Part shown: in pieces, positions 239-21,814 of the stretch | Numbering within the stretch: the stretch's first letter is position 1 | Layout: the number at the start of each line of letters is the position of its first letter | NCBI GenBank assembly: GCA_964493415.1 | Contig: CAZBND010000005.1 | Span: 39,076 to 103,075 of the forward strand | DNA length: 64,000 nucleotides | DNA from: an uncultured Planctomycetota bacterium | Lineage (GTDB): Bacteria > Planctomycetota > DG-23 > CAZBND01 | Direction: 5' to 3' | The notes under the pieces: model-generated | The model's input: the letters and a program-made list of their open reading frames with translations, nothing else | Database searches by the model: none | Told to the model about the DNA's origin: nothing | Made by a program: the position numbers and the translations under genes

Positions 239-1600
239 CTATGCTTGCGAGACCAGCTCGTCTTCGAACCGTCGCAGGCGAAGCTCCAGCTCCCCGGCGA
301 CGTCCGGGTATTCCGCCACGACGTTTTCCTGCTCGGCCGGGTCGGTGCTTCGGCGATAGAGTTCAGTCGCGCGCGGCGCTACGTCCTTCGACGGCGGCGC
401 GGCCGGCTTTCCTCTGGGCCAGTACACGAAAGTCCACTCGTCCGTTCTTATGCTGCGCGAAGCGCCTATGCCGGACTTCAAGCTGTGGCAGGCGACGGCG
501 AAGTCGCGCAATGACTCCTCTTCCCCCTCGATGACGGGAAGAATGGAACGGCCGTGCATTTTCTCGGTCGGGCGCACACCGAAGGCGTCCAGCACTGTAG
601 CCGTCAGATCGCATGACTGGAAGAAGCTCGAAAAACGTCGCCCCGCTCCGTGCCCTTCCGGGTGCCTTATCAACAGCGGCACGTGCGCAAGCTCGTCGTA
701 AGGCCATGGGGCGAATTTGCGCCACAGACCGTGCCCCCACGTGCCCTCCCCCAACGGCTCGCCGTGGTCGGACGTGAATATCACCAGTGTGTCTTCCAGC
801 AGGCCGCCGTCTCTGAGATGGTCGATGAAGATGCCTACCCACTTGTCAACCATCGTGCACTCCCCTGCGTAAAGGGCGCGCACGACCTTGGCCTCTCTCT
901 CCGTTATCGAGAATCCGTCCTGGCGGGGAAACGGGCAGATGGGCATGAGCTCGCCGTGATAGTCAGCATCGTACTTCCGCCAGAATTCCTCGGGCGGATT
1001 CCACGGCTCATGGGGGTCGAAAGTGTCGAGCCACAACATGAAAGGCTGAGGCCGGTCGTACTTGTCAATCCACTTGATCGCTGCTTTTATGACCTGCGCC
1101 GCGAGATGGTCCTCGTCCGACCGCCACACCGAGAACTGCTGGACCCATTTGTGAAGGCCGGGGTGATTCACCACACGCCCGGCGGGGTAAATAGGGCCCA
1201 TGTCCACCTCTGCATCGAGCATTTCGTCGGTGAATGCCCAGCCGCTCTGTCCGCGAATGAACTCCACGTGGTCGAACCACTGAGTATACCCATGCCCCAT
1301 CGTGAACATCGGCATGGAGTCGCTGATCAACGACGTATAAACGTTGGCGTCGAAAAGGCTGCGGGCCAGCCGCCCATCCTCCGGACGCATGTCCTCCCAA
1401 CCGCGCCACGGGAAAGTGAACCGCCCCGTGAAGGCGGCGGTGCGTTGAGGAAGGGTAGGAAGACCTTCGGTGTAGGCGTTGTCTATGACGGCGCATTCTT
1501 TGCCGAACGCATCCAGCCTGGGAGTCTCGATCCAATCGTTGCCGTTGAAGCCGAAGTGGTCCCAACGCCAACTATCGCAAAGAATCACTATTACATTCAA
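239..1600 (-). CDS. Alkaline-phosphatase-superfamily hydrolase (sulfatase/NPP-like), paralog A; no signal peptide
   Basis: N-terminal metal-binding block VIVILCDSWRWDHFG aligns with the sulfatase ADDLGYGDLG block. FTSDHGE motif present. The nucleophile position reads T-L-P-Q-R (LPTLPQRTAAFTGR), not C/S-x-P-x-R. The GKxHxG block is absent. Confidence 0.7.
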   Translation of the reverse strand: MNVIVILCDSWRWDHFGFNGNDWIETPRLDAFGKECAVIDNAYTEGLPTLPQRTAAFTGRFTFPWRGWEDMRPEDGRLARSLFDANVYTSLISDSMPMFTMGHGYTQWFDHVEFIRGQSGWAFTDEMLDAEVDMGPIYPAGRVVNHPGLHKWVQQFSVWRSDEDHLAAQVIKAAIKWIDKYDRPQPFMLWLDTFDPHEPWNPPEEFWRKYDADYHGELMPICPFPRQDGFSITEREAKVVRALYAGECTMVDKWVGIFIDHLRDGGLLEDTLVIFTSDHGEPLGEGTWGHGLWRKFAPWPYDELAHVPLLIRHPEGHGAGRRFSSFFQSCDLTATVLDAFGVRPTEKMHGRSILPVIEGEEESLRDFAVACHSLKSGIGASRSIRTDEWTFVYWPRGKPAAPPSKDVAPRATELYRRSTDPAEQENVVAEYPDVAGELELRLRRFEDELVSQA

Positions 1601-1639
1601 TCATGCCTCCCTGAACGCAGCTGCACGAAGCCAGCGACA

Positions 1640-4600
1640 CTACGGACCAACCAACGCGCCGGCCGAATTGTTCACCTCCGTGATCTCGTCAATCGCGCCT
1701 TCCGGGTCCACCACTGCGTAGATCGTGTGCTCCCGCCCCTCCATATCGTACGGGAACCCCAGCCGAACCGTCTTCGGGTCGAGGTCTATCGGGGCCGCGA
1801 TATGGGGAATGGTCTGCCTGCCTATCTCCTTTCCCCCGGCGGCAGGGTCGCCATCATAGACGATCACGTCCACGTCGCGAGCCGGCTGAGAGCCCACGTT
1901 ATGTACTTTCACTATGAGCTGCTCGCTGGAGGCTGAGAATATGACGTCCTCTCGCGAGATGCCCAAATCCGGCAGCAGCTTCGTGTGCGCGCCGCGGCTG
2001 AGGCGGCTCACCTCCACAACAAACTGCCGTCGCGGCGGAAGCGTGAAGCTGATCGGCACGCCGCGCTGTGGCAGCGTCCACTCATCCACGGACGCTTCGA
2101 CGTCAATCGTCCCGTCTCCCGTTTGGTCGAAGCCCGTCCGCACCAAATAGACGCTACCGGGAGCAAGAACCCAGGGTCTGATGCCAAGCTCCGCAGGCGT
2201 TTCCGTCATGCTGTAGAGCACGACTCTCAGGTTTCGCTCATCACTCACGAGGCACGCGGCAACGCAGTCGCGCGTAAGCCCGGTGTAGGTAACCGCAGCG
2301 TGCTGGGTGCCTCCCGCGCCGTAGCCCGTCAGGGCCCTGAACGGATCGAGCATTCCCGGGATGTATATGCGGTCGGTGGCAAGCGAATCAGCGGTGACGA
2401 CCGGCCAACGCCTTCGCGCTTCGCGGTTGAGAATGGCGCATCCACGCTCTACCGCGTCGAGCGTGGTGACGGGCTCGGGGGTTGCGTCTGCCTTGAGCAT
2501 GTGCTCGATCCGCTGCCAGCCCGTGATCGCAGACCGCCCCGGCTGCTCAGCACTACCCAAAAGCATCCTGCCTGCCCACGCTGGGGAGCCCGGCTCGGGA
2601 TCCTCGATCGGATTGTCCAGGTAGGACTGAGCAAGTTCCGCCTCGCGTCGCATCGGCTCCAGATACTTCTCCTGCCCGGTGCGTTCGTAGGCCCCGATCA
2701 GCAGATCGACAACCGCCTCCCTATACCCTCCCATGCCCTCCCAGTCGTAGTTCACCGTCCCTGGAGCATGGTTCGCCTTGTACCACGCGGGTGAATCCAG
2801 GCCGCCGATTTCCATGGTCTGGAACGCGAATTCGGCCGGCATCACTCCCTCCGGCTTGCCCTTATCAGTGGACATCGAAGCAGCAAGCCATGCATCGGCC
2901 CACAGGTTGAACAGCCTAGCGAGGGTCGGGCTGCCGTTGTACCAGAGCACACTTCGCGCAGGAAGCGCCGGCCTATAGTTAATGCGAGAATCATTTGCTT
3001 GGTATCCGGTTCCCACGCCGACGGCTCCCAGGAAGTTGGCTCGCATTGCGAAGAAGCCCTTGTCGTTGAAGTCCATCCACAGGTCGCGCATCAGCTTTCC
3101 GGTCTTCATCGACCTTTCAATCCAGACGGGGTTCCCGTAATCCAACAGCATCATAACCGGCAGAGGATCGCCGGTGAACTCACCCGTATGTTCCGTATCG
3201 CCGACTCGGGGGAAGAACCCGCTTTCGGTGTCGACCTCTCCCAAGAACCACGCGCCGTCGCTTAAAAGCCGACAGCCTTCAAGCGTCACAGGCGATGCCT
3301 GCGGAGAGATCGCGCCGAAATTGCCGAAGAATCGCAGGGCCTCGACATCGTCCCCCCAGCCGCCGCCAAGCGATCCGTCGGGGAATTGCTTGTTTTCGAA
3401 CCACCATTCGCACAAGTCGAGCATGCGATTGTAGGCTTCCCACAACTGCGCGGCCCACCCTGGAGCTTGCTCGGCGGGCACATGGTATTCGGGGAACGCC
3501 CAATCAGCCCCCGGGGTCCAATCGTCGTAGAGATACAGCCGCACGTATCGGTTTTCGGGAAATTTCTTCTCCACTTCCCGAAGCATGGCAAAGGCCATCC
3601 CGCCGCCCATCATCCACCGGTGGGGCTCGATCATGAAAAGAGCCCGCGCGGCATATACGTTGGCCTTATAGTAATATGGACCCTCACTCATCATCTGGTG
3701 GCACCACGTTACGGCCCGATACAGGCGGAAGTAGGCGTTCTGCCAGTTCGATGCCCTGAACTGGATAGATTTGCTCATGACTTCGGCCGATACGGTGCGG
3801 TTGTTGACCAGGTCGGCGGCTCTTGCAAATATCTCGGTCAACCTCCGCAGCTCCACGGCACGGTAGTCATTCGGGTGCTCCGCCACGTATGAATCCAGCT
3901 CAGTCCCCAGCGTGGGCAGAAGCTCTGCTTCCCTATCGTTCTCAGGATGTCCCGCCAGCCAGGCGTAGCCCTGTGCGCGCGCGTACGCCAGAGCACCGCC
4001 CTCGACGGCGTGGAGCAACTCTTCGGCCTGAGCGAATTCTTGGTGGTTGAAGTGTTCCGCCACCTTCGCCAGCGCTCTGATTTCGGTCTCTTGGGTCCCT
4101 GCCGGAACGCCCGCCGGGTCGAAGCTCAACCCGCTGTCCGTCATCGAAAAAGGCTCCGGGCGGTGCTCATACACTTCAACGCCCATGACGCTGTTCCGCG
4201 TAAACGGCAACCAAAGGTGCCCCGGGCCCTGACTTCGCTTGCCCTTGACCCTCCCCGGCACCAGCCACGAGTCCTGCGGAACGAGAGGGTTTGCCCCAAG
4301 CCACGCGTCGTATTCGCTCTGATCCCCACGGAAGGAGAGGAGTAGACCGCCTTCGGGGAAATCGACATCGAATCGCAGCGGAAGGTAGAAGCCGTAGAAT
4401 AGGATGTCTTCGGGATTACGTCCCTTGATGGCGTATGGAGCGAGGTTCTTCGCTATCAACCGGTCGTTGGCGTAGATGGAAATGGAGCCGAGCGGGTCGA
4501 GCATATTCCCGATCGTCGCCACAACGTGATACCTGCCGGGCGGAAGGTCGATTCGGAACTCCATCACCTTACCACCCTGGACGCCGTCGCGATTCAGAGG

Positions 4601-4891
4601 GGTGACGTTCCTGTCGTAGAGAATGTCCCTGAAGATATGCCAGTGAGCCTCGCGTTCGGGAGTGTCCGTCGTAAATCCCGTGAGACCCGTACCAATCCAA
4701 CCGTACCCAACCTCGGCCGAGTACGTGTTTTCGGACGTAACGCGGACATAACCTGGAGCCACGGGCGAGCCTTCGGTCCCCATGTCGAACCTTAAGGGTA
4801 CGAAGTCCCCGGTAGCTCCAGCAAAGACACCCCCTCCCACAAACAAGAAAAGCAAAAGCGCCAGTCCTACGATACGCGATTCAGCAAACAC
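1640..4891 (-). CDS. Large secreted protein, paralog 1 of 3 (~1083 aa); N-terminal beta-sandwich-like region, central conserved core, C-terminal CARDB-like domain; candidate glycan-active enzyme
   Basis: GTG start preceded by GGGAGG. Signal peptide MFAESRIVGLALLLFLFVGGGVFAGA. Blocks shared with the ORFs at 17090-20305 and 22074-25310 include FDMGT..SPVAPGY, WW.ENKQFPDGSLGGGWGDDVE, ANDSRINYR and LWYN.SPTLA. The C-terminus (VHNVG...VVDP.GEIDEITE.NN) is CARDB-like. Confidence 0.75.
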   Translation of the reverse strand: MFAESRIVGLALLLFLFVGGGVFAGATGDFVPLRFDMGTEGSPVAPGYVRVTSENTYSAEVGYGWIGTGLTGFTTDTPEREAHWHIFRDILYDRNVTPLNRDGVQGGKVMEFRIDLPPGRYHVVATIGNMLDPLGSISIYANDRLIAKNLAPYAIKGRNPEDILFYGFYLPLRFDVDFPEGGLLLSFRGDQSEYDAWLGANPLVPQDSWLVPGRVKGKRSQGPGHLWLPFTRNSVMGVEVYEHRPEPFSMTDSGLSFDPAGVPAGTQETEIRALAKVAEHFNHQEFAQAEELLHAVEGGALAYARAQGYAWLAGHPENDREAELLPTLGTELDSYVAEHPNDYRAVELRRLTEIFARAADLVNNRTVSAEVMSKSIQFRASNWQNAYFRLYRAVTWCHQMMSEGPYYYKANVYAARALFMIEPHRWMMGGGMAFAMLREVEKKFPENRYVRLYLYDDWTPGADWAFPEYHVPAEQAPGWAAQLWEAYNRMLDLCEWWFENKQFPDGSLGGGWGDDVEALRFFGNFGAISPQASPVTLEGCRLLSDGAWFLGEVDTESGFFPRVGDTEHTGEFTGDPLPVMMLLDYGNPVWIERSMKTGKLMRDLWMDFNDKGFFAMRANFLGAVGVGTGYQANDSRINYRPALPARSVLWYNGSPTLARLFNLWADAWLAASMSTDKGKPEGVMPAEFAFQTMEIGGLDSPAWYKANHAPGTVNYDWEGMGGYREAVVDLLIGAYERTGQEKYLEPMRREAELAQSYLDNPIEDPEPGSPAWAGRMLLGSAEQPGRSAITGWQRIEHMLKADATPEPVTTLDAVERGCAILNREARRRWPVVTADSLATDRIYIPGMLDPFRALTGYGAGGTQHAAVTYTGLTRDCVAACLVSDERNLRVVLYSMTETPAELGIRPWVLAPGSVYLVRTGFDQTGDGTIDVEASVDEWTLPQRGVPISFTLPPRRQFVVEVSRLSRGAHTKLLPDLGISREDVIFSASSEQLIVKVHNVGSQPARDVDVIVYDGDPAAGGKEIGRQTIPHIAAPIDLDPKTVRLGFPYDMEGREHTIYAVVDPEGAIDEITEVNNSAGALVGP

Positions 4892-5114: not shown

Positions 5115-7076
5115 GTGGAGAAGCTTATGCGCGGCCGGGAAACACAGGCCCACGAGTTCCCATTGTGGGTGAAGGCAGAAGGGATATACGCAGCTAGTTC
5201 CCACGAGCCGCTGAAGTTCTATCGACGCATCGGCAATAACCCCGAATGGCGCGAGCAATGGTACTACGCGCATCGCACTGAAGAGTTCGCCAGGGAGATG
5301 GCGGATGCCGGGTTCAACCACGTCAACTTCGCCTTCTTCAAAGGGTTCGGTCTGGAGGAGGAACGCGAAGAGATCGACGATCTCGCAAAGCGAATCCCGG
5401 TCTTCCACAAACACGGCATCAAGGTGCGCGCGTACATCCAGTTCGGTTCACTGATGTACGAGACGTTCCTGAAGGAAGTGCCTGAGGCGAGAGACTGGTG
5501 CAGGCGAGATCCCCAGGGCCGCATAATCACTTACCGCTGGGGCAACTTGTATTGGAGATGGCGTCCTTGTCACAGCAAGCCGGGGTTCCGCGCCTATCTC
5601 AAGAAGTGCGTTGACCGCGCCATCGAAATCGGCGTCGACGCCATCGGCTTCGACAACGTCAAGCAAGGATGGGGAGGAGACTACCACGACTTCTGCTATT
5701 GCGAAACCTGCCGGTCGCTGTTTCGAAGCTACCTGGTCAACAACTTAGCCGGCCGCGCGGACCTCATCGGGATAAGTACATTCGAGAATGTGGAACCTCC
5801 TTTGCAGCATCACGTCAACGACGTCATCTGCCAGGCATGGGCGCGATTCCAGGACGAGCGCCTTCGCGACAACGTGCGCGAGATGTACGAATACGCCAAG
5901 AGCAAGAAGCCGGACGTGCTGATCAACACTAACGGCTTGCCGGCCCACGTATCAGGTGACTCCACGGACACAAGCACATGGGAAGGCCACTACTCGCCGC
6001 GAATCGAAAACGATGAAATCATCTGCGGAGCCCATGCTTATAAGCACGGGAACGACCGGGACATCTATGTTTACGCGTCGGTTGTCGCTCCTGAATTCAG
6101 TGAAGAAGACCTGAATTCGCCGGAGAGTGCAGGGCTGCGAACGATGAAGCTCGGCGTTGCTTGCGCCACGGCATTCGGCGGTCACGGCGTTTTCGTCCCC
6201 GCGATTATGTCGAAGATGCGTGGCGCGAAGTTCCCACTGGACGCGCCGGCGTTCGCAGAGACCTGCCGCCGCTACTTCGGCTTCCTGAGACAGCACCGGC
6301 GGCTCTTTTATCCTCTCGAATCCGCGGCCAACGTGGCTATCTATCTCAACTGGCCGTCCTGGACTCTGGACCGGGAACGTGTGACACCTGTCCACAACCT
6401 CGTGGAGCAGCTCTTCATAAGACACCATGTTCTTTTCGACATTTTCTATCTGAGGCCGCCGGAAAGCCTGCGAAAATATGACCTGTTGGTTTTTCCCGAG
6501 ATCAGATGCATGTCTGACCGCGAGTTGGGTGACATCACCAAGTTCATCCAAGCAGGGGGCGCGGTGCTGTCGTTGGGCCAGACTTGTCAGTGCGACGAGC
6601 ACTTCAGAGAGCGGCGGGCGGCCGGGTTGACGAAAGCTCTGAGCCACGGAGGGCAGAAAGTAAAATCTCTGCGAATCCCGCATGAGGCGTTGGAGCCGGG
6701 AGGCTGGAGGACGTTTGGCAGCCTTATCGAGGTAGCGCGCGACCTGTTGGGCGAAAAAGGTCTGCCGATCGAATTCGACGCGCCTGACACTTTAGCAGTC
6801 GATGCGTACAGGATACGAGGAACCGGCAAATCGACCGTTAGCCTGCTCAACTTCGATCCCGATCAGAAGGCGAAGGCCGTCGTGCTGCGGCTTTCAGGCA
6901 AGCGGTTCGGAGATGTCAAGCGCGCCTGGTGCGCGAGCCCCGACAGTCACTCGGCGGAACTTTCCCCACTGCCTGTCAAATCAGACCTGGAGGTTGCCGC
7001 ATTCACTGTCCCCGAAGTGGATATCTTCTCGATCGTAGTCACAGAAGGTTCCGCGTCTCGGCATGGAGCCGATTAG
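5115..7076 (+). CDS. GH42-like glycoside hydrolase (TIM barrel, beta-galactosidase-like) with a CxCxxC zinc-site-like motif
   Basis: 653 aa, matching GH42 length and architecture. N-terminal region (NPEW..W..EEFAREMADAGFNHVNF) resembles the GH42 catalytic barrel. A CHSKPG...CYCETC Cys cluster is present. Transcribed divergently from paralog 1. Confidence 0.5.
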   Translation: MEKLMRGRETQAHEFPLWVKAEGIYAASSHEPLKFYRRIGNNPEWREQWYYAHRTEEFAREMADAGFNHVNFAFFKGFGLEEEREEIDDLAKRIPVFHKHGIKVRAYIQFGSLMYETFLKEVPEARDWCRRDPQGRIITYRWGNLYWRWRPCHSKPGFRAYLKKCVDRAIEIGVDAIGFDNVKQGWGGDYHDFCYCETCRSLFRSYLVNNLAGRADLIGISTFENVEPPLQHHVNDVICQAWARFQDERLRDNVREMYEYAKSKKPDVLINTNGLPAHVSGDSTDTSTWEGHYSPRIENDEIICGAHAYKHGNDRDIYVYASVVAPEFSEEDLNSPESAGLRTMKLGVACATAFGGHGVFVPAIMSKMRGAKFPLDAPAFAETCRRYFGFLRQHRRLFYPLESAANVAIYLNWPSWTLDRERVTPVHNLVEQLFIRHHVLFDIFYLRPPESLRKYDLLVFPEIRCMSDRELGDITKFIQAGGAVLSLGQTCQCDEHFRERRAAGLTKALSHGGQKVKSLRIPHEALEPGGWRTFGSLIEVARDLLGEKGLPIEFDAPDTLAVDAYRIRGTGKSTVSLLNFDPDQKAKAVVLRLSGKRFGDVKRAWCASPDSHSAELSPLPVKSDLEVAAFTVPEVDIFSIVVTEGSASRHGAD

Positions 7077-7705
7077 AAAAGCGTATAGATGAACGGCGCC
7101 AGGGCGGAACTTTGGACGAAGAAGAGAAGAAGGCCCAAGATGACCAGGACCACCAACACCGGCACCAATACAAAGTGCCTGCGTCTGATAAAGAACCCAA
7201 GGACGATCATGGGCAATACCATCATCCGCAACGCTCGCCGCGACCCGGAAAGGTCTGCCAACATGACGATCGTCTCTTTGGGAGTCCATCCCTCCATTCC
7301 ATCAGGTGGGTCGCTCTTCCAGGCGTAGATCGGGTGGGAACCCTTGCTCACGCGCATCAACTTCCCCACCGGCCAGAAGAGAACAAAGTAGATCAAGGTA
7401 AGGAGAATCACAAAGACGAAGTTTCCGATAGCTCTGGACAGCCTGCGCACGGTCCTCTCGGGCAGGGACCACGCGGAGGGGAACACGACGGTGAGAATGA
7501 CGCCGCCCGCACCGAATATCATAATTCCCTTCCAAAGCACATCCTTCGCCCCGACTACGAGGAAGTAGTTGACGGAGCCGACGAGAAGCATCAAGCTGCT
7601 GACAAGCAGTCCGAACACTATCTGACTTCTCAGTAGGTGCCTGGCCCGCCGGCCGGCCAAGCGCTCCAAGTACCCTTGCGCCTCAGTCAAGGTCGAACCT
7701 CCCAA
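7073..7705 (-). CDS. Small polytopic membrane protein of unknown function, co-operonic with the carbamoyltransferase (possibly SxtJ/SxtK-like)
   Basis: Four or more hydrophobic helices. Its start overlaps the carbamoyltransferase stop by about 20 nt. Confidence 0.55.
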   Translation of the reverse strand: MGGSTLTEAQGYLERLAGRRARHLLRSQIVFGLLVSSLMLLVGSVNYFLVVGAKDVLWKGIMIFGAGGVILTVVFPSAWSLPERTVRRLSRAIGNFVFVILLTLIYFVLFWPVGKLMRVSKGSHPIYAWKSDPPDGMEGWTPKETIVMLADLSGSRRALRMMVLPMIVLGFFIRRRHFVLVPVLVVLVILGLLLFFVQSSALAPFIYTLF

Positions 7706-12750: not shown

Positions 12751-12754
12751 GGAT

Positions 12755-13648
12755 ATGGGTGTCCGCCTGGGAACGCTTAGACAACGCGAGGAGGCGTTGG
12801 CTTACCTTCTGGTGTTTCCCGGCCTCCTCGTAGTCCTCGGGGTGGTTCTATTCCCTGTCATCTACAATATCTGGATGAGCTTCCATGACCTTACGCTGGC
12901 CAATTTGGGCGAGCGCGCTCCTTTTGCCGGACTGGACAACTATCTCAAGGTCATACGCGACCCGGACTTCCTCTCGTCGCTCCTCATAACGGGAGGATAT
13001 GCCGTCGCTGCGGGCCTGATGTCCATCTTGGTCGGGCTGGCGGCGGCTTTGCTGCTGAATGTTCGAATGCCGATGCGTAATGTGTTCCGGGCCAGCTTCC
13101 TTTTCCCCTACGTGGCGCCGTTGATCTCGGTCGTCTACATCTGGAAATGGATTCTCGACCCCCAGGCAGGCGTGGCCAACTGGCTGCTTATGAAGGGCGG
13201 GATAATCTCCGCGCCGATGGACTGGCTGACCAATAGCAGCACCGCCCTTCTCTCGGTCATCCTGTTTCAAGGGTGGCGCTACTTCCCCTTTGCCATGCTC
13301 CTGATCCTCGCCAGGCTCCAGGCTATACCGACGGACTTGCACGAGGCCGCAGCCGTCGACGGCGCAAATAGATTCCAGCAGTTTATTAACATCACCCTGC
13401 CCGAATTGCGATACGTCCTGGGGATTGTGTTCCTCTTGAGGTTCGTGTGGACCTTCAACAAATTCGACGATGTCTTCCTTCTCACCAGCGGAGCCGCCAA
13501 CACCAAAGTGCTCCCCATATTAACGTACCGCTATGCAATCGGGACCGGACAGCTCGGCGTAGGCGCCGCCTGCTCCATGTTCTTGTTCATCGTCCTCGTC
13601 GCATTCATCCTCGTATATCATCTGAAGGTTTTCCAATGGGGAAAGTAG
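12755..13648 (+). CDS. Sugar ABC transporter permease (MalF/UgpA-type)
   Basis: Six TM helices. The EAA-like loop is AAAVDGANRFQQFINITLPELR. Confidence 0.85.
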   Translation: MGVRLGTLRQREEALAYLLVFPGLLVVLGVVLFPVIYNIWMSFHDLTLANLGERAPFAGLDNYLKVIRDPDFLSSLLITGGYAVAAGLMSILVGLAAALLLNVRMPMRNVFRASFLFPYVAPLISVVYIWKWILDPQAGVANWLLMKGGIISAPMDWLTNSSTALLSVILFQGWRYFPFAMLLILARLQAIPTDLHEAAAVDGANRFQQFINITLPELRYVLGIVFLLRFVWTFNKFDDVFLLTSGAANTKVLPILTYRYAIGTGQLGVGAACSMFLFIVLVAFILVYHLKVFQWGK

Positions 13649-14478
13649 CCCGAAGAGTCCTAGTCCTGGTGGCGCTGCTCGCTTTTCTCTTTGTGGTCCT
13701 CTTCCCGCTCTATTGGATGGTCATCTCATCAACGAAGAGCTTCAGAGAGCTCTTCAGCACAACCCCTGTGTTCTGGCCCAGCACTTTCACGGCAAAGGCG
13801 TACAAGGCGGTGCTGACCAGCCCCGGCGAGGACATCCCCGACCTCCTGGACGCGCTGCGAAACAGTCTGATGGTCGCGGGCGGCACGGTCTTCTGCTCTC
13901 TACTCCTCGGAACTCTGGCCGCGTACGCCATAGCGAGGCTCAGATTTCGGGGAAAGGCCCTGATAACAGGCCTGGTGCTCGTGGTCTATCTCTTTCCGGC
14001 CATTTTGCTGATGGTTCCGCTTTTCGCGATGTTCGCGAAGGCGGGATTGCACAACAAGCTGAGCGGCCTGATCGTGGCCTATGTGGCGCAGACGTTGCCG
14101 GTCAGTTTGCTGATGCTCGGAAATTACTTCAGAAGCATCCCGGCGGAGATAGAGGACGCCGCGCTGGTCGACGGGTGCAGCAGGCTGGGGGTGATCTGGA
14201 GGGTCACCATTCCTCTTTCCGTCCCCGCCATCGCATCGGTTGCACTCTATGTGTTTGTGATCGCGTGGAACGAATTCCTCTTTGCGTACATTCTGCTGAC
14301 CGACACGAAGAAGTTCACTGCCCCCGTCTGGATTTCTTATCTCTACTCCCAGCTTCATACCCCCTGGAATCAGGTCATGGCCGCCAGCGTCCTGGTCACG
14401 GTCCCCGTGATCGTACTCTTCGTCTGGTTCGAGAAGTACATGGAACAGGGACTTACGGCGGGTGGTGTCAAGGGGTGA
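13636..14478 (+). CDS. Sugar ABC transporter permease (MalG/UgpE-type)
   Basis: Starts at the internal ATG 13636 (MGKVARRVLVLVALLAF), overlapping the upstream stop codon. The EAA loop is DAALVDGCSRLGVIWRVTIP. No ATPase gene is present locally. Confidence 0.85.
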   Translation: MGKVARRVLVLVALLAFLFVVLFPLYWMVISSTKSFRELFSTTPVFWPSTFTAKAYKAVLTSPGEDIPDLLDALRNSLMVAGGTVFCSLLLGTLAAYAIARLRFRGKALITGLVLVVYLFPAILLMVPLFAMFAKAGLHNKLSGLIVAYVAQTLPVSLLMLGNYFRSIPAEIEDAALVDGCSRLGVIWRVTIPLSVPAIASVALYVFVIAWNEFLFAYILLTDTKKFTAPVWISYLYSQLHTPWNQVMAASVLVTVPVIVLFVWFEKYMEQGLTAGGVKG

Positions 14479-14513
14479 CTACTGGGCGCATGTGGTAAGC
14501 AAGAGTCCGCAGT

Positions 14514-16952
14514 TCAGATGTATCCCATCGCTCTAAACTGCTGCATCTTTCTTTCGACCTCTTCCCTCGGCACGATGTCGCGCGCGCCACTTTCGTAACC
14601 CTCCCGACGCGGAGGCTCTGTCTCGCCGCCGAGGCGATAAAGATACAGCTCGGGCTCAAGCGCATACAGCAGAGAAGGAATCCTTACGTTGAATCCGGTG
14701 AACTCGCGGGCGTTCGCAGGAAGACCAAAGAGAAGCGAACCCGCTTTCAGCTCCCACGAGCCGAGCCGCAGCCGCTTCGGCCCCCTGACGCCGGTCACGG
14801 TTGAATCCAAAAAGAGCCTTGCGTCATCAGGTTCCACGCGGAAGAAAACCGTGTCCTCCCAATACTCCTCGGCCAGGGCGAATTTGATACGCTGCCGATT
14901 GGCGCTGACCGTCACGGCATCCTCATGCTCAAGCGTCATCGGCATGACATCACGAAACTCGCCGTCCGTTGTAATCATCCCCCGCACAGACAGCCTTTGG
15001 TGGGTGGGGGAAACAAACCGCAAGTAGAATCCTCTTCGCAAGTACCGGTCTTCGATTTCGGTCCTGAATCTGGCAGCGAGCCAGGGATTCTCCTCAGCGA
15101 GATTCACCTCTTCTCTTGGGTCGCTCCCCAGGTCGAAGAGCATCTGCTCGACCCGGGGCGAGACCCGCAGTATGTACTTGTATCCTCCATCCCTCACCGC
15201 GTAAATCCTGTGGAGAAAGCCTGCCTTGTCTGTTGAGACGTAGTTTTCGAGATGGTGGAAAAGCTTCGTGCCGCTCTCGTCATTTTCAAGATCGGCAAAA
15301 GCCGTTCCGGGTAAATCGCCCGGCGCGGTCAAGCCCAGCGCGTCAGCAATCGAGGGAAACAGATCGATCTGGCTCACGGGTGACGCGATGCGCGTCCCCG
15401 CAAATCGTCCGTCCGGGTATTTGACGATCAGGGGGATACGAAGAACCTCATCGTAGAGCGTCTTGCCGTGGTCCCACCCTAGCGCTATATCGGCATCCCC
15501 GGGATGGTCCCACATGGCCTCACCGTGGTCAGCAAGGAATACCACCATCGTGTTATCGTACAGCCCCAACTCCTCGAGCTTCGTCAGCACTTTGCCGAAC
15601 TCGGTGTCGGTAAACCGAATCAGCCCGTCGTAGAGGGACTTCACGTGCTCGATGTCCCTATCCGGCAGATTGCTCCATCCGTCTCCGAAATACGGGATGT
15701 CACCTGTTATTGGTCCACTGTAGTCCGGGTCAAACATCGTTGCATATTCTCCCGGAGGCTTGTATGGCGAATGGACGTCGTTGGTGTGAACGTAGAGGAA
15801 GAAAGGCTCAGTCTTGTGCGCCTCTATCCAGGGGAAGATGCTTTCGTTGAGATCGGCGGCAGTAGCCACGGCAGCCGGCCTCCCCCAGTCCAGATACGCG
15901 CCGCCGTCAAAGCCCTGCGTCAGGTTCGATTCGGGCATAAATGCAAAAGGATGCGCCACTATCTGCCATGTCGTCCAGCCGTTCTCTTGAAGCAACTCGG
16001 CCAACGTCGTGAACTTGTCCTCGAGCATGGACGAGAAATGTATCACCTGGTGAACATCCGGCTCGAGTCCGGTAAAGATCGAGCTCAGGGCAGGCAGTGT
16101 CCAACTCGAAGTCGAGTACGCTTTCTCGAACACAACCGCCTCTTGGGAGAACGCATCTATCATGGGACTCGTGGCCCGACCATAGCCGTAGCAACCCAAG
16201 TGGTCCGCCCGAAGGGCATCGACAAGGTAAACGATCACGTTGGGCTTGCCCGCGCGACGCTCCCTGGGCGCGATGGCGGGGACAGAAACCAAGCAGCTCC
16301 CGGTTGCGCCGGGACCGTCGTCAGGCTTAAAGCGAAACGATATTTCAACCTGGTCGCCGCCCGTGGCTTCCACCGGCATTCTGACGGGCAGCCAGCCTGC
16401 CGCGTGATGCTCGGCGGTAAGCACTTTGGCGAGAGAGGCTTTCTCAACGCCGCCGGGCGAGCTGATCGTCGCTGTGAACAGAACCGTCTCCCCGAAGTCC
16501 CACGGTTCGGGGTCGTCCCCCAGCGACAAAGAGAACAAGATGTCGTGACCGTCCGGGACCCGCCCAGTCAGGACCAGTTCCCCGGGATTCGGCACCTCGA
16601 AGGCGTTCCTCATCGCCCCTCCAAGGTAAACCCTGCGGTAGTCGGTTCCCGACGATTGCCGGAGAATCGCCCACCCTCGCGACCGGATGTCGTCCGCGGT
16701 GGGAGGTCGAGCGTGACCCCACCGATTCATCCACGCCGCATTCTTCCGCACGCGGTCGCTGTCATCACTCGGAAGGCTCAACGGCTTCCTATGCGCATTT
16801 CCCTCAGGTCGGACTCGACTTATCGACTGAATCAGGATGACAGCCAATAGAAGTGCCGCAAGCACACAAGCCCCGATGGCAACGACAACAATCTTCGTCC
16901 GACCGAAAGCACTACTTTGGCTATGCTTGATTGGCAGACTCTCCTCGATCAT
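14514..16952 (-). CDS. Membrane-anchored alkaline-phosphatase-superfamily enzyme, type I phosphodiesterase/nucleotide pyrophosphatase (NPP)-like, with long N- and C-terminal extensions
   Basis: N-terminal TM helix. VIVYLVDALRADHLGCYG matches the NPP D-x-x-R-x-D block. SSWTLPALSSIFTGLEPDVH parallels the NPP Thr-nucleophile block T-F-P-N-H-Y-S-I-V-T-G-L-Y-P-E-S-H. FLADHGE is present. 812 aa. Confidence 0.7.
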   Translation of the reverse strand: MIEESLPIKHSQSSAFGRTKIVVVAIGACVLAALLLAVILIQSISRVRPEGNAHRKPLSLPSDDSDRVRKNAAWMNRWGHARPPTADDIRSRGWAILRQSSGTDYRRVYLGGAMRNAFEVPNPGELVLTGRVPDGHDILFSLSLGDDPEPWDFGETVLFTATISSPGGVEKASLAKVLTAEHHAAGWLPVRMPVEATGGDQVEISFRFKPDDGPGATGSCLVSVPAIAPRERRAGKPNVIVYLVDALRADHLGCYGYGRATSPMIDAFSQEAVVFEKAYSTSSWTLPALSSIFTGLEPDVHQVIHFSSMLEDKFTTLAELLQENGWTTWQIVAHPFAFMPESNLTQGFDGGAYLDWGRPAAVATAADLNESIFPWIEAHKTEPFFLYVHTNDVHSPYKPPGEYATMFDPDYSGPITGDIPYFGDGWSNLPDRDIEHVKSLYDGLIRFTDTEFGKVLTKLEELGLYDNTMVVFLADHGEAMWDHPGDADIALGWDHGKTLYDEVLRIPLIVKYPDGRFAGTRIASPVSQIDLFPSIADALGLTAPGDLPGTAFADLENDESGTKLFHHLENYVSTDKAGFLHRIYAVRDGGYKYILRVSPRVEQMLFDLGSDPREEVNLAEENPWLAARFRTEIEDRYLRRGFYLRFVSPTHQRLSVRGMITTDGEFRDVMPMTLEHEDAVTVSANRQRIKFALAEEYWEDTVFFRVEPDDARLFLDSTVTGVRGPKRLRLGSWELKAGSLLFGLPANAREFTGFNVRIPSLLYALEPELYLYRLGGETEPPRREGYESGARDIVPREEVERKMQQFRAMGYI

Positions 16953-17089: not shown

Positions 17090-20000
17090 CTACATCCCGA
17101 CCGCCAGTGCGGACTTGTTGTTCGATTCTGTTATCTCGTCTATCTCCCCGTCCGGGTCGACGACAACTAGGATATCACGGGGAGGCGATTCCAGAGTCCA
17201 CGGAATGCCGACGCGCAGAGTTTGTGGCAAAAGGTCCAGCGGAGCAGGCAGCTTGATCCCCACACCCCTGCCCACTTCGGTCATGCCGCTCTCGCCCACA
17301 TCGTACACAGCTACCGAGAATCGTGTCGCCTCCGCCGAACCGATGTTGTGGACTCTCACCTTCACGAGTCTGCTGAGTTGCTCGTACTCGACGTCCTCAG
17401 GACTGATGGCGAGGTCCGGCAGCAGCGAGGGCGCATCGCCCGAAGCTATCTGCTTAAGCTCAACGATGTAGGGCGTTCGCGGAGGCAGCGTCACGGGAAC
17501 GGGCTGGCCGCGGAACCTTATGCGCTGCTGCCCCGTCCCTGCGATCTCGTCGGGCTCGCCGTTCTCGTCCAAGTCGGGCCCGTACATCAGCTCATACGAA
17601 GCCCCCGGCTCCAGCAGCCACGGCCGAATGCCGCACTCCCGTTCCTTCGCCCGGAAATTGTACAGTGCAACCTTGAGCTGCTTTGTCCCGGATGTCAGCA
17701 CGACAGCAGCGAACTGGCGTCCTGGACCCACGTAGGTCACTTGAGGGTCCAGCCCGCCGGACGCACCCGCCGCGGTCATTGCCGTGTACGCCGCGTGAAG
17801 CCCCGGCCAGCCTATGCGGTCGGTGGCCAACGCGTCCGTGGTGGAAATCGGCCAGCGCTCCCGCGCACCTCTGATGCAGGTCTCGTTACGGCGACGCGCA
17901 TCGGGCAAGGACGTCACGCTCGGCTCGCCCCCCTCCCCCAATCCGAGGGTCCGCTGCAAACGCGCCCACAACTGCACGGCTCCCCCAAGTTGCCTCCCCG
18001 CCCATTCGGGGGACCCCGCTTCCGCCTCACCTTCCGACTGCCGTGCCCGCGCGGCCAGTTCCGCTTCGAGCCTCAGCGGCTCGAGGAACGCCCTGTCCCC
18101 GCTGCGCTCGTAAGCGCCCACCAAGAGGTCCGTAATGTAGTCGTGATATCGGCTGTCCCAATCATAGTTGACGGTTCCTCCGGCATGGTTCGCGATGAAC
18201 CACGAGGGTGACTCGGTGCCGCCGATCTCACCGGTTTCGAATCCGATTTCGGAGGGGATTACGCCGCTGGGTTTCCCCTTCTCAGCGGACATTGACGCTT
18301 CCAGCCAAGCTTTCGCCCACCCGTCGAACAGCGCCGCGACCGAGGGATTGCCGCTGTACCACAGGACCGACCGAGCCGGAAGGGCGCATCGGTAGTTTAT
18401 CCGCGAGTCATTCGCCTGGAGCCCCGTGCCCACCCGGGTTGCCCCGACCATGTTGGAGCGGAATAGATATTGACCGCGGTCGTTATGGTCCATCCAGAGA
18501 TCGCGCATGAGCTTCGCCACCTTGAGGCCAAGCTCCGTCCACGTCGGGTTGCCGTAGTCCAGGATCACCATGGTGGGAATAGTGTCGCCCGTCCATTCGC
18601 CCGTGTGCTCGGCGTCGCCCATCCCGCCGAAGAACCCCGCCTCGGGATCCATGTTGGGGGACGCGAGAGCCCCGTTGACTATCCCAGCGCAGAGCTCGAC
18701 CATCTTCTCCGAGGCGTCCGGGCAGATGGAGCCGTATGTGCCGAACAGCCGGAGGATCTCCACGTCGTCTCCCCACCCGCCGCCCACCGATCCATCCGGG
18801 AATTGCTTGTTCTCGTACCACCATTCGCCCAGGTCGAGGCAGCGATTGTACGCCTCGTACACGGCTGCGGCCCACTCGGGCGCCCCCTCCGTGGCCGGAG
18901 AATAGTCGGGATAGTTGGGCCACTCGGGGCCGGGCGACCAGTCATCGTACAGGTACAGCCGGACGAAGCGGTTGTTCGGGAACTTGGTTTCGACCTCTCT
19001 AAGCAGATCGGCGGCCTTGCCGGATGCCATGACCCACCGGTGCGGGTCGAACATGTATAGCCCGCGGGCCTCATGAATCTTGGCCTTGAGGTAAACGGGC
19101 TCTCCGCGATGAATGAGGTCCAACTTCCCTATGCCCCTGAAAACCCGCCAGTAACCGTTCTCCCACGACGTATCCGCATGCCGCAAATCCGGGGGCAGGG
19201 CCATCTGATCCGAGAATGAGACCGCTCTATGCAGTATCGAATCTATGCCCTGATTGAAATTGACAAGAACCTCCAACAGATGCTCCGCCCGTTCATCTCC
19301 CGGATTCGCCTTGTTGTAGGCCTCAACCGCGGCGATCGCCTTCGGCGCAAGTTCCAGCTCCCGCTCGTAGTCGGGATTGCCTGCCAGGAACGCGTAGGCC
19401 CTGGCTTTCGCATATCCAAGCAGCGCGTCGCTTATGCCGTCCAGCTTCCGCTCCGCCTCAACGAATCGCTGGACGTTATACGCCTGCAGTGCTTGCTCAA
19501 TCGTGCCAACCTGCGGAACGCTGGCAGAGGCGGGAATCGCAGTGCGATCCAGCACCAGCGCGCCGTCAGCTTCAACTATCGGCTCGGGCGCGTAACGATA
19601 GACCTCTACTCCGAGAACGCTGTTTGTCGTAAACGGCAGGCCGATATCCCTGTAGGGCGCATGGGGCTTCAGCCGTCTTCCCTGTCTGACGAGCCAGGAT
19701 TCGGGCGAGGGCTTCTGCTCCTCCTCCGCCAACCACTTGTCATAGTCTGATTGGTCCCCCGCGAAGTTCAGCGCAAGCCCCTCGTTCCCCACGCTCACCG
19801 GGAAACGCACGCGCTGGTAGTAGCCGTACCAGTCCCCTTGGGCCGAGCCGCCCCGCGAAGCCCAGTGCTTGGCGTTGACGTTCTTCACCATCAACTCGCC
19901 GTTGGCGTAAACCGACATGGAGCCCAGGCCCCGCGTCAAATCCCCCAGCGTAACAACCACCACGTAGTCACCCTCACGGAGATCTACCTTGAAGGTCATG

Positions 20001-20305
20001 TCTTCCGTATCGCGAACTCCATCCCGATTCAGGGCGGTCGCGGTCTTATCGAACAAGGTATCCCTGAAGACGAACCAATGCGCCAGTCGGGCGGGTCTTT
20101 CCGACTCGAATGATTCGTGTCCCGTCTCGAGCCACCCGTAGCCGAGTTCAGGGGAATAGAGGGTCCTCCCCTCTACCTTGATAAAGCCGTCTAACACGCG
20201 CGATGTGCCCGTACCCATGTCAAACTTGGCTGGGGCGGAAACGACCGCCCACGCTGAGCCCGCCACAAGCACGGCCACAATCAATATCGCCACTTTCGAC
20301 CTCAT
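17090..20305 (-). CDS. Large secreted protein, paralog 2 of 3; CARDB-like C-terminus
   Basis: The likely start is the second ATG (MRSKVAILIVAVLVAGSAWA), because GGGAGGGGG lies just upstream of it. Same conserved blocks as paralogs 1 and 3. Confidence 0.75.
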   Translation of the reverse strand: MRSKVAILIVAVLVAGSAWAVVSAPAKFDMGTGTSRVLDGFIKVEGRTLYSPELGYGWLETGHESFESERPARLAHWFVFRDTLFDKTATALNRDGVRDTEDMTFKVDLREGDYVVVVTLGDLTRGLGSMSVYANGELMVKNVNAKHWASRGGSAQGDWYGYYQRVRFPVSVGNEGLALNFAGDQSDYDKWLAEEEQKPSPESWLVRQGRRLKPHAPYRDIGLPFTTNSVLGVEVYRYAPEPIVEADGALVLDRTAIPASASVPQVGTIEQALQAYNVQRFVEAERKLDGISDALLGYAKARAYAFLAGNPDYERELELAPKAIAAVEAYNKANPGDERAEHLLEVLVNFNQGIDSILHRAVSFSDQMALPPDLRHADTSWENGYWRVFRGIGKLDLIHRGEPVYLKAKIHEARGLYMFDPHRWVMASGKAADLLREVETKFPNNRFVRLYLYDDWSPGPEWPNYPDYSPATEGAPEWAAAVYEAYNRCLDLGEWWYENKQFPDGSVGGGWGDDVEILRLFGTYGSICPDASEKMVELCAGIVNGALASPNMDPEAGFFGGMGDAEHTGEWTGDTIPTMVILDYGNPTWTELGLKVAKLMRDLWMDHNDRGQYLFRSNMVGATRVGTGLQANDSRINYRCALPARSVLWYSGNPSVAALFDGWAKAWLEASMSAEKGKPSGVIPSEIGFETGEIGGTESPSWFIANHAGGTVNYDWDSRYHDYITDLLVGAYERSGDRAFLEPLRLEAELAARARQSEGEAEAGSPEWAGRQLGGAVQLWARLQRTLGLGEGGEPSVTSLPDARRRNETCIRGARERWPISTTDALATDRIGWPGLHAAYTAMTAAGASGGLDPQVTYVGPGRQFAAVVLTSGTKQLKVALYNFRAKERECGIRPWLLEPGASYELMYGPDLDENGEPDEIAGTGQQRIRFRGQPVPVTLPPRTPYIVELKQIASGDAPSLLPDLAISPEDVEYEQLSRLVKVRVHNIGSAEATRFSVAVYDVGESGMTEVGRGVGIKLPAPLDLLPQTLRVGIPWTLESPPRDILVVVDPDGEIDEITESNNKSALAVGM

Positions 20306-20377
20306 ATGTCCCCCTCCCTTCAAACCTGAAATCCCTTAGCGGCCGGAATCCGACAACACTGCGCGCAACGTCAGCAA

Positions 20378-21814
20378 CTAATCCACGAGCGCCTTCCTCG
20401 ATGCGAGGAACTCCTCAGGCGTGCCGATCTCCCGCAGATACGAGATTAACTTCTCGTTGATATTTCCGGCGACGTCCTTGTGCTCGTCATAAATGTTGCT
20501 GTTCTGCAGGGGATCGTTCCGGTTGTTGAAGAGCATGGGCTTGAGTTCCTGGTCTATAAGCTTCGTGTGCTTCCTCGGAATCCCGTCGACGACCCGGTCC
20601 TCGTAGTCCTCGGTCTGCACGTCCGGAGCCCCGCCGTATATGAAGGTCCATTCGTCCGTGGTCACCGTGCTTCGGGCGTAAGGATTCGCCCCCCTCCATA
20701 GAGAAGGAGATGACACCGCGAGTTCCCGAATCCTCTCGGCCTTCCCGTTCATCAGAGGCACCATCGACTTGCCGTGAACCTCGTCCGGCGCTTCCAGTCC
20801 GCACACGTCCATAATGGTTGCCGTAATGTCCACCGGCTGCACGAGAGCATGAGAGCGCACCTGCTCTTCCTGCCCGGGCATCTTCACGACCAGCGGTATG
20901 TGCGCGATCTCATCAAACAGGGGTATGTACTGCTGGTACTGCGACCGGATCACGGACTTCCCTATGTATCCCCGCTCTCCGATGCAGAACCCATGGTCGG
21001 TCGTAAATATGATCATAGCCTCGTCGTATATCCCGAGCACCTCCAACTTGCGGAGGATATGGCCCACCCAGTGGTCTACCAGCGAGACCTCCCCCCGATA
21101 TCGCGCGCGGCAGTGATTCAGCTCCTCCGGCGTAAGGAAATCGATCTTATCGTACAGCGGGTACTCGATCACCTCGCCTTGGTAGCCCGGGTCGTACATA
21201 TCAACGTACCACTGTGGCGGATCCCACGGCTCGTGCGGATCGAACATGCCCACCCACAGGAAGAAGTCGTCCAGCTTGTAGTTCCTCTCCAGCCAGTGCA
21301 TGGCGCTTGTGGCAACTTTGGCGGGAAGCCAGTCTTCCTCGAATTGACGAAGGGCGTTATTGCGAACGTGCTGGCTGGCGGTGGTGTCGGCGCTGCGCAC
21401 CTTCTCGCGCTTGCAGGGGAAATCCACATGGCGCGGGTCCGTCCGCCACTTGTCCACAGTCTGCCCTCGAATATAGTCCCAGCCGCTGAAGTCGCGGTCG
21501 AAATTGAATCCATGCTGAAATATGTGCGGCGTATCGGAAATCAGCATGGTCGTGTACCCGGCTTCGTTGAGCAGCGACGGCATGGTTTTCGCGTCTCTCG
21601 GCAGCGCCTGCCAGCCGCCACAGGTGAAAGTGTACCGGCCTGTGATGACGTCGGTTCGATGCGGCACTGTCGGAAACGACCCGCAGTACGCGCGGTCGAA
21701 AACGGTCGCCCCCGCACCCAACCCGTCGACATTGGGCGTCTTGACCTCTCTGCTGCCGTACAGGCCCAAATGGTCTCGCCTTAACGTGTCCGAAATGATG
21801 AGCACCACCTTCAA
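20378..21814 (-). CDS. Alkaline-phosphatase-superfamily hydrolase (sulfatase/NPP-like), paralog C; no signal peptide
   Basis: KVVLIISDTLRRDHLG metal-binding block. The nucleophile position reads FPTVPHRTDVITGR (T-x-P-x-R). TTDHGF is present. 478 aa. Confidence 0.7.
   Translation of the reverse strand: MKVVLIISDTLRRDHLGLYGSREVKTPNVDGLGAGATVFDRAYCGSFPTVPHRTDVITGRYTFTCGGWQALPRDAKTMPSLLNEAGYTTMLISDTPHIFQHGFNFDRDFSGWDYIRGQTVDKWRTDPRHVDFPCKREKVRSADTTASQHVRNNALRQFEEDWLPAKVATSAMHWLERNYKLDDFFLWVGMFDPHEPWDPPQWYVDMYDPGYQGEVIEYPLYDKIDFLTPEELNHCRARYRGEVSLVDHWVGHILRKLEVLGIYDEAMIIFTTDHGFCIGERGYIGKSVIRSQYQQYIPLFDEIAHIPLVVKMPGQEEQVRSHALVQPVDITATIMDVCGLEAPDEVHGKSMVPLMNGKAERIRELAVSSPSLWRGANPYARSTVTTDEWTFIYGGAPDVQTEDYEDRVVDGIPRKHTKLIDQELKPMLFNNRNDPLQNSNIYDEHKDVAGNINEKLISYLREIGTPEEFLASRKALVD

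Follow-up and report, generated by a model that had tools for sequence, protein, structure and literature searches.

What does a protein of the sulfatase fold do when threonine stands where a sulfatase carries its formylglycine (FGly) residue? The question was raised by three genes, here called A, C, and M, in a 64,000-nucleotide stretch of contig CAZBND010000005.1 (assembly GCA_964493415.1, positions 39,076 to 103,075), which comes from an uncultured Planctomycetota bacterium and is referred to below as the window. The answer that we favored, with a probability of roughly 55%, was that A and C are metal-dependent ester-cleaving enzymes that would use an unmodified threonine alkoxide as the nucleophile. 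In our best reading, both proteins derive from the S1 sulfatase/phosphonate monoester hydrolase (PMH) branch of the alkaline-phosphatase superfamily.

Threonine-bearing non-sulfatases within the Pfam family PF00884 were already recognized, and LtaS and EptA are well studied. The SulfAtlas paper pointed out that many seed sequences of PF00884 bear threonine and cannot be called sulfatases (PMC5066984). For the soluble T-x-P-x-R family described here, which keeps Arg55, His211, Lys375, and the SGSH_C subdomain of the sulfatases and carries Asp in place of Lys113, we found no earlier description.

Threonine at the formylglycine position

HMMER alignments to solved sulfatases placed T49 of A, the equivalent threonine of C, and T285 of M on the Cys or Ser that becomes FGly, as the initial annotation of this DNA had proposed. 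A hidden Markov model (HMM) alignment also put Thr49 in the same column as the Cys of canonical neighboring sulfatases. The nucleophile motifs were P-T49-L-P-Q-R53-TAAF-TG in A, P-T-V-P-H-R-TDVI-TG in C, and W284-T285-L-P-A-L-SSIF-TG in M, the last of which has no Arg. The threonine was invariant in both of the families to which these proteins belong. Specifically, all 115 parsable top homologues of A had Thr-x-P-x-R, as did 167 family members from 148 loci, and Thr285 was invariant in 119 homologues of M. The substitution is thus not a chance one.

When the three proteins were scored against two Pfam families, PF00884 (Sulfatase) matched A, C, and M at 114 to 155 bits, together with the SGSH_C subdomain (PF16347), and the matches to PF01663, the nucleotide pyrophosphatase/phosphodiesterase (NPP) family, were weak or partial. 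M reached 155 bits with PF00884 versus 33.5 bits with PF01663 (profile positions 1 to 222 of 342), A reached 26 bits with PF01663 over 36 residues only, and C stayed below the cut-off at 16.7 bits. The 33.5-bit match of M was not diagnostic because canonical Cys-type sulfatases also reached 31 to 43 bits on PF01663. The initial annotation had seen in M a close match to the NPP threonine block; this match was not specific, since the whole superfamily shares the block T-x-P-x-x-(4)-T-G.

A and C, which were 32% identical over their full length, start 8 residues before the first metal-binding Asp, and no upstream extension of either open reading frame is possible. Therefore, neither protein has a signal peptide, and both are predicted to be cytoplasmic. 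The earlier view that two of the three proteins are cytoplasmic and that all three lack signal peptides agreed with these starts in the case of A and C; M instead has one N-terminal membrane helix.

Residues kept and changed in the A/C family

To relate A to characterized sulfatases, we mapped it through the published SulfAtlas signatures, using the numbering of the P. aeruginosa arylsulfatase (PMC5066984). The key residues of A were D9, S10, T49, P51, R53, D94, D192, D195, H197, E198, D278, H279, H290, and K295. The sulfatase positions kept were Asp13 (D9), Arg55 (R53), His211 (H197), Asp317/Asn318 (D278/H279, His being a common variant), and Lys375 (K295). C has equivalents of the metal ligands, of His211, and of Lys375, and its Arg corresponding to R53 is likewise kept; this Arg was invariant in the family. 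Three positions were changed: Asp14 is S10 in A (Ser or Thr in the family), Cys51 is T49, and Lys113 is D94, which amounts to a charge inversion.

The Lys113 column was located by the register of the SulfAtlas signature G-Y-x-T-x3-G-K (PMC5066984). Asp occupied it in A, in C, and in 159 of the 167 Thr-type proteins, Ala occupied it in M, and Lys was present in the 3 Cys-type neighbors that aligned there. His115 had no conserved counterpart in the A/C family, and D192, D195, E198, W68, and W200 were new invariant residues. The absence of the sulfatase Lys/His block, which had also been noted earlier, was thus borne out. With the threonine invariant and the Lys113/His115 block lost, the conclusion that none of the three proteins is an ordinary FGly sulfatase was supported.

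The family signature, D-[ST]…P-T-x-P-x-R…D…D-x-F-D-P-H-E-P-W…S-D-H-G…H…R-K, was nearly fixed, and we used 13 of its positions (D-[ST]-T-P-R-D-D-D-H-D-H-H-K) to define the A/C family. A carries the complete signature, DSTPRDDDHDHHK, and matched all 13 positions exactly. C carries a variant, DTTPRDGDHDHRK, which matched 11 of the 13 positions (G at the D192 position and R at the H290 position). By the same signature test, M fell outside the T-x-P-x-R / D-x-F-D-P-H-E-P-W family. The 13-residue signature was identical in 143 of the 167 Thr-type proteins, which came from both bacteria and archaea; this spoke for a catalytic site that has been kept and against a pseudoenzyme.

The family is large. 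More than 2,765 database proteins matched A at E<=1e-10 among the 8,000 candidates scored, and genomic sites of the family numbered at least 597 in the one-genome-per-species contigs of GTDB and at least 587 in JGI metagenomes. Among the matches listed, the closest named relatives of A were from Hydrogenedentota. Other bacterial hosts of the A/C family were Poribacteria, Planctomycetota, Armatimonadota, Chloroflexota, and Bacillota, and the archaeal hosts were Bathyarchaeia, Thermoprotei, and Asgard archaea. Desulfovibrionaceae, including Bilophila wadsworthia, had many tandem copies, and many Desulfobacterota Thr-type proteins had the motif T-V-P-C-R. No characterized or solved T-x-P-x-R member was found in the literature, among the 60 listed profile matches, or among the top 50 Foldseek matches.

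Profile and fold neighbors

The AF2 model of A had a pLDDT of 92 and a pTM of 0.94, and the model of M had values of 84 and 0.82, respectively. In the model of A, T49 lies at the N-terminus of helix 50-58, and D94, D192, and D278 lie at C-terminal strand ends, which is the usual active-site layout of the superfamily. All of the top 50 Foldseek matches in the PDB, for A as well as for M, were FGly sulfatases or PMH; examples are 4UPH and 7OZ8 (the leading matches), 9KOQ, 9FO1, 2VQR, and 1HDH. The model of A matched PDB entries with TM-scores of about 0.65 to 0.77 at identities of no more than 24%. Similar results were obtained with two sequence profiles, whose best solved matches were S1 sulfatases/PMH (2e-52 and 1.5e-62 against 7OZ8). 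No match named NPP, EptA, or LtaS was among the 60 listed for either profile, and none of the three was within the top 50 fold matches of A or M.

In NCBIfam, the best match was arylsulfatase, far under its cut-off, and the EptA/LtaS models gave 14 to 30 bits relative to cut-offs of about 400 to 1250. Membership of A, C, or M in the NPP, EptA, or LtaS families was rejected on the basis of the HMM scores and the fold neighbors. By sequence and predicted fold, the three proteins are closest to the formylglycine S1 sulfatases/PMH; the structural comparison that the initial annotation had called for, with NPP, EptA, and PMH, thus fell on the PMH/sulfatase side.

Proposed mechanism of A and C

In the mechanism that we propose, a divalent metal held by D9, T49, D278, and H279 would activate Thr49. 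The sulfatase-site residues R53, H197, and K295 would bind a tetrahedral anionic ester, either a sulfate or a phosphate, and attack by Thr49 would give a covalent Thr-O-S/P intermediate. Water or an acceptor would then resolve this intermediate, aided by D94, D192, D195, and E198, which, to judge from where they stand in the sequence, may act as a general base or as second-metal ligands. The loss of Lys113 and His115 fits a threonine mechanism because both residues serve the FGly gem-diol and are needless without FGly.

As to the bond that A and C may cleave, we divided our expectation among a phosphate ester (about two chances in five), a sulfate ester (a little over one in three), and a group-transfer or mutase-type reaction (about one in four). 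Threonine and serine nucleophiles form covalent phospho-enzymes in NPP, LtaS, EptA/MCR-1, alkaline phosphatase, iPGM, and phosphopentomutase, and all characterized Thr-nucleophile members of the superfamily act, to our knowledge, on phosphoryl groups. The chemistry favors phosphoryl substrates because the characterized Thr/Ser members all act on them.

The membrane-anchored paralog M

M was only 24% identical to A and belongs to a separate Thr-type family with the motif W-T-x-P-[SGA]-[VL], which contains no Arg. The Arg55 position is Leu in M and Val, Leu, or His in its family. The residues D245, T285, H301, H389, H394, D475, H476, and H495 were invariant in the M family. D245, D475, H476, and H394 are equivalents of sulfatase-site residues, and H495 stands in place of the conserved Lys.

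The single membrane helix of M is predicted at residues 17-47 and was also present in the full-length orthologues P0122 and P0125. It would be followed by a beta-sandwich (94-229), the catalytic domain (238-636), a second beta-sandwich (641-775), and a C-terminal helix. The public gene call for M (P0121) begins at residue 114 and so omits the membrane helix. At the extreme C-terminus, the M family had the motif L-x-A-L-G-Y, each position of which was 86 to 98% conserved in the 119 homologues.

M would be an extracytoplasmic, membrane-anchored relative of A and C in which the Arg and Lys are replaced by H301, H389, H394, H483, and H495. This His-rich set resembles the sites of phosphoryl-transfer enzymes, and the invariant H389, H394, and H495 could form a second site (Asp/His/His) like that of the two-zinc enzyme NPP. 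With its His-rich, outward-facing site, M is the best candidate among the three for a phosphoryl hydrolase or transferase.

Gene neighborhood in the window

The features of the window are listed in Table 1. A lies in a module with big1, and C, big2, and M run in one transcriptional direction. The three proteins big1 to big3 (about 1,080 amino acids each) have a weak N-terminal galactose-binding-like domain, a Pfam-blank core, and a C-terminal CARDB domain. The conserved core spans about 700 residues and contains the motifs W-W-x-x-x-Q-x-x-D-G-x-x-G-G-G-W-G-D-D-V-E and T-D-R. No Pfam family matched the big1 core, even across 32 homologues. In an exhaustive search that sized the big family at 282 clusters (E<=1e-30), single homologues were fused to GH88, GH2, DUF2961, Laminin_G_3, an FGE-sulfatase domain, or a lambda-carrageenase propeller, and one homologue matched alpha/alpha-toroid models. 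These fusion partners pointed to a role in glycan degradation, with hints of sulfated polysaccharides, and big1 to big3 are probably members of an undescribed family of glycan-active enzymes.

Table 1. Thr-type genes and other features of the 64-kb window
Feature	Position	Strand	Description
A	239-1600	minus	453 aa, intact open reading frame; Thr-type sulfatase-fold protein, predicted cytoplasmic
big1	1640-4891	minus	Secreted, 1083 aa; 39 bp upstream of A, same orientation
GH42-like protein	5115-7076	plus	653 aa, cytoplasmic; PF02449 32.7 bits; divergent from big1-A
Open reading frame with DUF5989 small protein	7073-7705	minus	Between the two Thr-type modules
NodU/CmcH-type carbamoyltransferase	7683-9524	minus	Between the two Thr-type modules
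SGNH/GDSL hydrolase	9521-11041	minus	Membrane-anchored; between the two Thr-type modules
Solute-binding protein of sugar-type ABC importer	11320-12750	plus	SBP_bac_1/8
ABC permease	12755-13648	plus	Assigned by reading hydrophobic translation
ABC permease	~13636-14478	plus	Assigned by reading hydrophobic translation
M	14514-16952	minus	812 aa, intact open reading frame; membrane-anchored Thr-type sulfatase-fold protein
big2	17090-20323	minus	Paralog of big1 (45% identity), between C and M
C	20378-21814	minus	478 aa, intact open reading frame; Thr-type sulfatase-fold protein, predicted cytoplasmic
big3	22005-25310	plus	Secreted paralog, 38% to big1 and 39% to big2; divergent from C
Family-B DNA polymerase	28222-30597		Among folate/C1-metabolism genes
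ATP:guanido phosphotransferase	42737-43795		McsB/arginine-kinase-like; among folate/C1-metabolism genes
OMP-decarboxylase/HUMPS-RraA-like fusion	45122-46492		Among folate/C1-metabolism genes

The cluster of DUF5989, carbamoyltransferase, and SGNH genes may O-carbamoylate or deacylate a glycan. The remainder of the window consists of housekeeping genes, and no FGE gene or gene for an anaerobic sulfatase maturase (anSME) was present within the 64 kb.

Gene context of relatives elsewhere

The seven closest A orthologues with readable contigs were examined for their neighbors, and five of them (in loci L174, L172, L088, L006, and L005) adjoined Cys-type sulfatases or an anSME gene. The orthologue in L087 (83% identical to A) had only a GH42-like gene, 73% identical to that of the window and likewise divergent from the A orthologue, and an NMT1/SsuA-like binding protein. 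The orthologue in L174 (77%) follows a big1-like C-terminus, which repeats the big1-then-A order, and has as a neighbor a TAT-exported Cys-type sulfatase (C-I-P-S-R, G-K-M-H-H) joined to DUF6259. In L172 (61%), a cytoplasmic Cys-type sulfatase (C-S-P-S-R) lies directly downstream. L173 (60%) was a short, uninformative contig. In L088 to L090 (57%), a radical SAM/SPASM gene overlaps the stop codon of the A orthologue. L006 (55%) had four Cys-type sulfatases, DUF6259, and an MFS transporter, and in L005 (53%) a Cys-type sulfatase lay at a distance of 5 kb, accompanied in the neighborhood by GH4, YdjC, and a sugar ABC system. The second Thr-type module also recurred: in L091, orthologues of C, big2, and M stand in the order of the window, the big2 orthologue being 74% identical and placed after the C orthologue. 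The neighborhoods of relatives at 40 to 45% identity (L001 to L003 and L007) were heterogeneous and, on their own, uninformative.

DUF6259 proteins recurred beside Thr-type genes and canonical sulfatases (L006, 11432-13687; L174, 2339-4660). In the case of L174, the TAT-signal Cys-type sulfatase and DUF6259 share one 773-residue frame, which is either a fusion or a frameshifted assembly.

The radical SAM/SPASM gene of L088 to L090 scored 360.8 bits with TIGR03942 (anaerobic sulfatase maturase), relative to a cut-off of 349.45 bits, and is thus an equivalog pass. It overlaps the A orthologue, which bears the identical TLPQRTAAFTGR motif, by 7 bp. No Cys/Ser sulfatase was present on the 6- to 8-kb contigs of L088, L089, and L090. 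The maturase of the L088 type has an unusual C-terminal SEC-C motif, C-P-C-G-S-G-K-K-F-K-H-C-C. An anSME as a family-wide partner was rejected, as tblastn was positive in one lineage only among 171 loci.

Across the 148 loci, Cys-type sulfatases lay beside a Thr-type gene in 7, with an overlap of a few bases in some of them (L142, L136, and L135). The recurrent neighbors included thioredoxin-like and thioredoxin-reductase-like genes (14 loci each, in Desulfobacterota), sigma-54 regulators, Cys-type sulfatases, GFO/IDH/MocA oxidoreductases, epimerases, MalK-like ATPases, sugar ABC components, and TRAP/TTT/anion transporters. Pho-regulon genes, phosphonate-catabolism genes, and recognizable teichoic-acid-related genes were absent from the top neighbor clusters of these loci.

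Downstream of the Thr-type gene of Desulfovibrionaceae and Desulfarculia come a gene for a thioredoxin-like protein (about 104 amino acids, C-P-H-C) and one for a 305-residue thioredoxin-reductase-like protein. The thioredoxin-linked Desulfobacterota loci include L032, L042, L045, L053, L059, and L061, and Desulfobacterota loci also hold Crp-like or sigma-54 regulators and TRAP, TTT, or anion transporters. A Cys directly after the active-site Lys (R-K-C) was found in 14 of 17 Thr-type proteins from thioredoxin loci versus 35 of 145 elsewhere (Fisher p = 4e-6). R-K-C and the thioredoxin genes could indicate redox-coupled chemistry, such as reductive sulfite release.

Probable role and points against it

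The genomic context favored sulfated rather than phosphorylated substrates. As read from this context, the enzymes would process anionic sugars or oligosaccharides that the cell has imported and that are most likely sulfated, with canonical sulfatases, the secreted glycan-active proteins big1 to big3, the GH42-like enzyme, and the ABC importer as partners.

Several points weighed against the assignment of A and C as ester-cleaving enzymes with an unmodified threonine. The context favors sulfated substrates, whereas Thr/Ser chemistry favors phosphoryl ones. FGly-to-Ser variants of sulfatases trap a dead-end sulfo-enzyme, so hydrolysis of a sulfate ester by a threonine route would need new chemistry. 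One A-orthologue lineage has an overlapping anSME gene (L088, 4793-6097; also L089 and L090). In addition, the window itself contains no canonical sulfatase, so the context argument rests on orthologues that are 53 to 77% identical to A. Finally, the roles suggested for D94, D192, D195, and E198 were assigned from sequence position alone.

Alternative explanations

The initial annotation had read A, C, and M as phosphodiesterases or phosphotransferases and had recast the locus as one that degrades phosphodiester-linked glycans (teichoic-acid-like or phosphoglycan) instead of sulfated ones. Phosphoesterase chemistry is chemically plausible, above all for the His-rich M: it has the precedent of the phosphoryl-acting Thr-nucleophile members of the superfamily, a second metal site like those of alkaline phosphatase and NPP could be assembled from the extra acidic residues of A and C and from the histidines of M, M exceeds the PF01663 threshold at 33.5 bits, and calcineurin-like phosphoesterases are neighbors in L088 and L174. 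However, canonical Cys-type sulfatases matched PF01663 at a comparably weak level, and the fold and profile neighbors were sulfatases/PMH and not NPP, EptA, or LtaS. The surroundings of the genes also spoke against a phosphoglycan locus, as five of the seven closest orthologues were beside sulfatase-system genes, no Pho, phosphonate, or recognizable teichoic-acid gene recurred in the top neighbor clusters, and big1 homologues were fused to GH88, an FGE-sulfatase domain, and a lambda-carrageenase propeller. We considered this reading unlikely as a whole, and the recasting of the locus was not supported.

It seemed rather improbable that the T-x-P-x-R family handles sulfate esters by an undescribed chemistry, which could take one of two forms. 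In the first, an anSME-type radical SAM maturase would make a keto cofactor from the threonine, as the overlapping gene in L088 suggests. In the second, a Thr-sulfo-enzyme intermediate could be passed on and not hydrolyzed. In Desulfovibrionaceae, the sulfo group could be transferred to an active-site Cys, and sulfite could be released reductively by the adjacent thioredoxin and thioredoxin reductase.

The keto cofactor can also be considered for A and C themselves. Here, a radical SAM enzyme of the anSME type would oxidize Thr49, giving a beta-keto residue (2-amino-3-oxobutyrate) whose hydrate would act like FGly. A and C would then be genuine sulfatases, or enzymes of the PMH type, that employ a new cofactor. 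Grove et al., in 2013, reportedly found that anSME turns threonyl peptides into a ketone in vitro. The maturase gene of L088 to L090 overlaps the A orthologue and exceeds the TIGR03942 cut-off. The complete motif that maturases recognize, x-P-x-R, was invariant in the A/C family and lost in the M family. The SulfAtlas authors, too, noted that oxidation of threonine would yield a ketone (PMC5066984). On the other side, an anSME homologue was nearby in one lineage only, and neither the window nor 168 other loci (about 2 Mb) had one. In the sister lineage L172, the slot of the maturase is taken by a Cys-type sulfatase, so the maturase may serve Cys-type sulfatases of the same regulon. The residues that serve the gem-diol, Lys113 and His115, are gone, the former inverted to Asp, and ketones hydrate poorly. 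Moreover, peptide maturases, DarE among them, are likewise picked up by TIGR03942 (PMC10705402). Taken together, these observations made an oxidized Thr49 quite improbable.

That A and C are inactive sulfatase relics, whose task would be to bind, sense, or chaperone sulfated ligands, was very improbable: the nucleophile is replaced, the Lys/His block is gone, and some members are extra copies beside active-looking Cys-type sulfatases, but 13 active-site positions, including all metal ligands, were near-invariant from Asgard and Thermoprotei archaea to Desulfovibrionaceae, which is not how decaying sites behave, new invariant acidic residues arose, and the family, which is large, has expanded in certain lineages.

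Significance

Hundreds to thousands of Thr-type proteins are annotated as "sulfatase" or "arylsulfatase A-like." Because these proteins cannot carry formylglycine, the sulfatase counts from which the degradation of sulfated glycans is inferred are inflated in Hydrogenedentota, Planctomycetota, Poribacteria, Bathyarchaeia, and gut Desulfovibrionaceae. The A/C family, in which most of the sulfatase site is kept, the nucleophile is swapped, and one charge is inverted, amounts to a natural experiment in how chemistry changes within a superfamily. Its position beside true sulfatases, and beside thioredoxin systems in sulfite and sulfate reducers, suggests an unrecognized cytoplasmic step in the metabolism of sulfated glycans or organosulfates. 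If the transfer of a sulfo group from threonine did occur, sulfite-respiring gut bacteria such as Bilophila would have a "reductive sulfatase." The function of the A/C proteins, which are small, soluble, and confidently predicted, can be tested directly.

Comparison with known systems

The S1 sulfatases and PMH (4UPH, 7OZ8/BT1918, 2VQR, and 1HDH) resemble A, C, and M in their two-subdomain fold (PF00884 plus SGSH_C) and in the metal ligands Asp13, Asp317, and Asn/His318. They also share with A and C the x-P-x-R-x4-T-G helix and the equivalents of His211 and Lys375. In contrast, S1 sulfatases need the Cys or Ser of C/S-x-P/A-x-R, which is converted to formylglycine, whereas A, C, and M have threonine. 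The sulfatase block G-Y-x-T-x3-G-K-x-H, with Lys113 and His115, has given way in A and C to an invariant Asp with loss of His115, Asp14 has given way to Ser or Thr, and D192, D195, E198, W68, and W200 are extra invariant residues of A and C. M differs further from the S1 sulfatases in that it is without Arg55 and has His in the region of Lys375.

The PF00884 transferases LtaS, EptA/MCR-1, and OpgB have in common with A, C, and M a threonine nucleophile, a mono- or bimetal site, and the pattern D/E…T…D-H, and the His-rich site of M presumably resembles the arrangement in MCR-1/EptA. These enzymes differ in having a multi-helix N-terminal membrane domain, no SGSH_C, and no Arg, whereas A and C are soluble proteins and M carries a single helix. 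NPP (PF01663) likewise has threonine at the N-terminus of the equivalent helix, within the block T-x-P-x-x-x4-T-G, but it has a Zn-binding His where A and C keep Lys (Lys295 in A). An NPP would be expected to match PF01663 over its full length and to have an NPP-like nearest fold, and A, C, and M showed neither.

Cofactor-independent phosphoglycerate mutase (iPGM) and phosphopentomutase belong to the PF01676 subfamily, have a two-metal Mn site, and showed no detectable specific similarity to A or C. They are nevertheless cytoplasmic enzymes of sugar metabolism that bind the anionic group covalently to a Ser or Thr as an intermediate and return it to a hydroxyl, and by analogy they offer a possible model for transfer or mutase chemistry in A and C.

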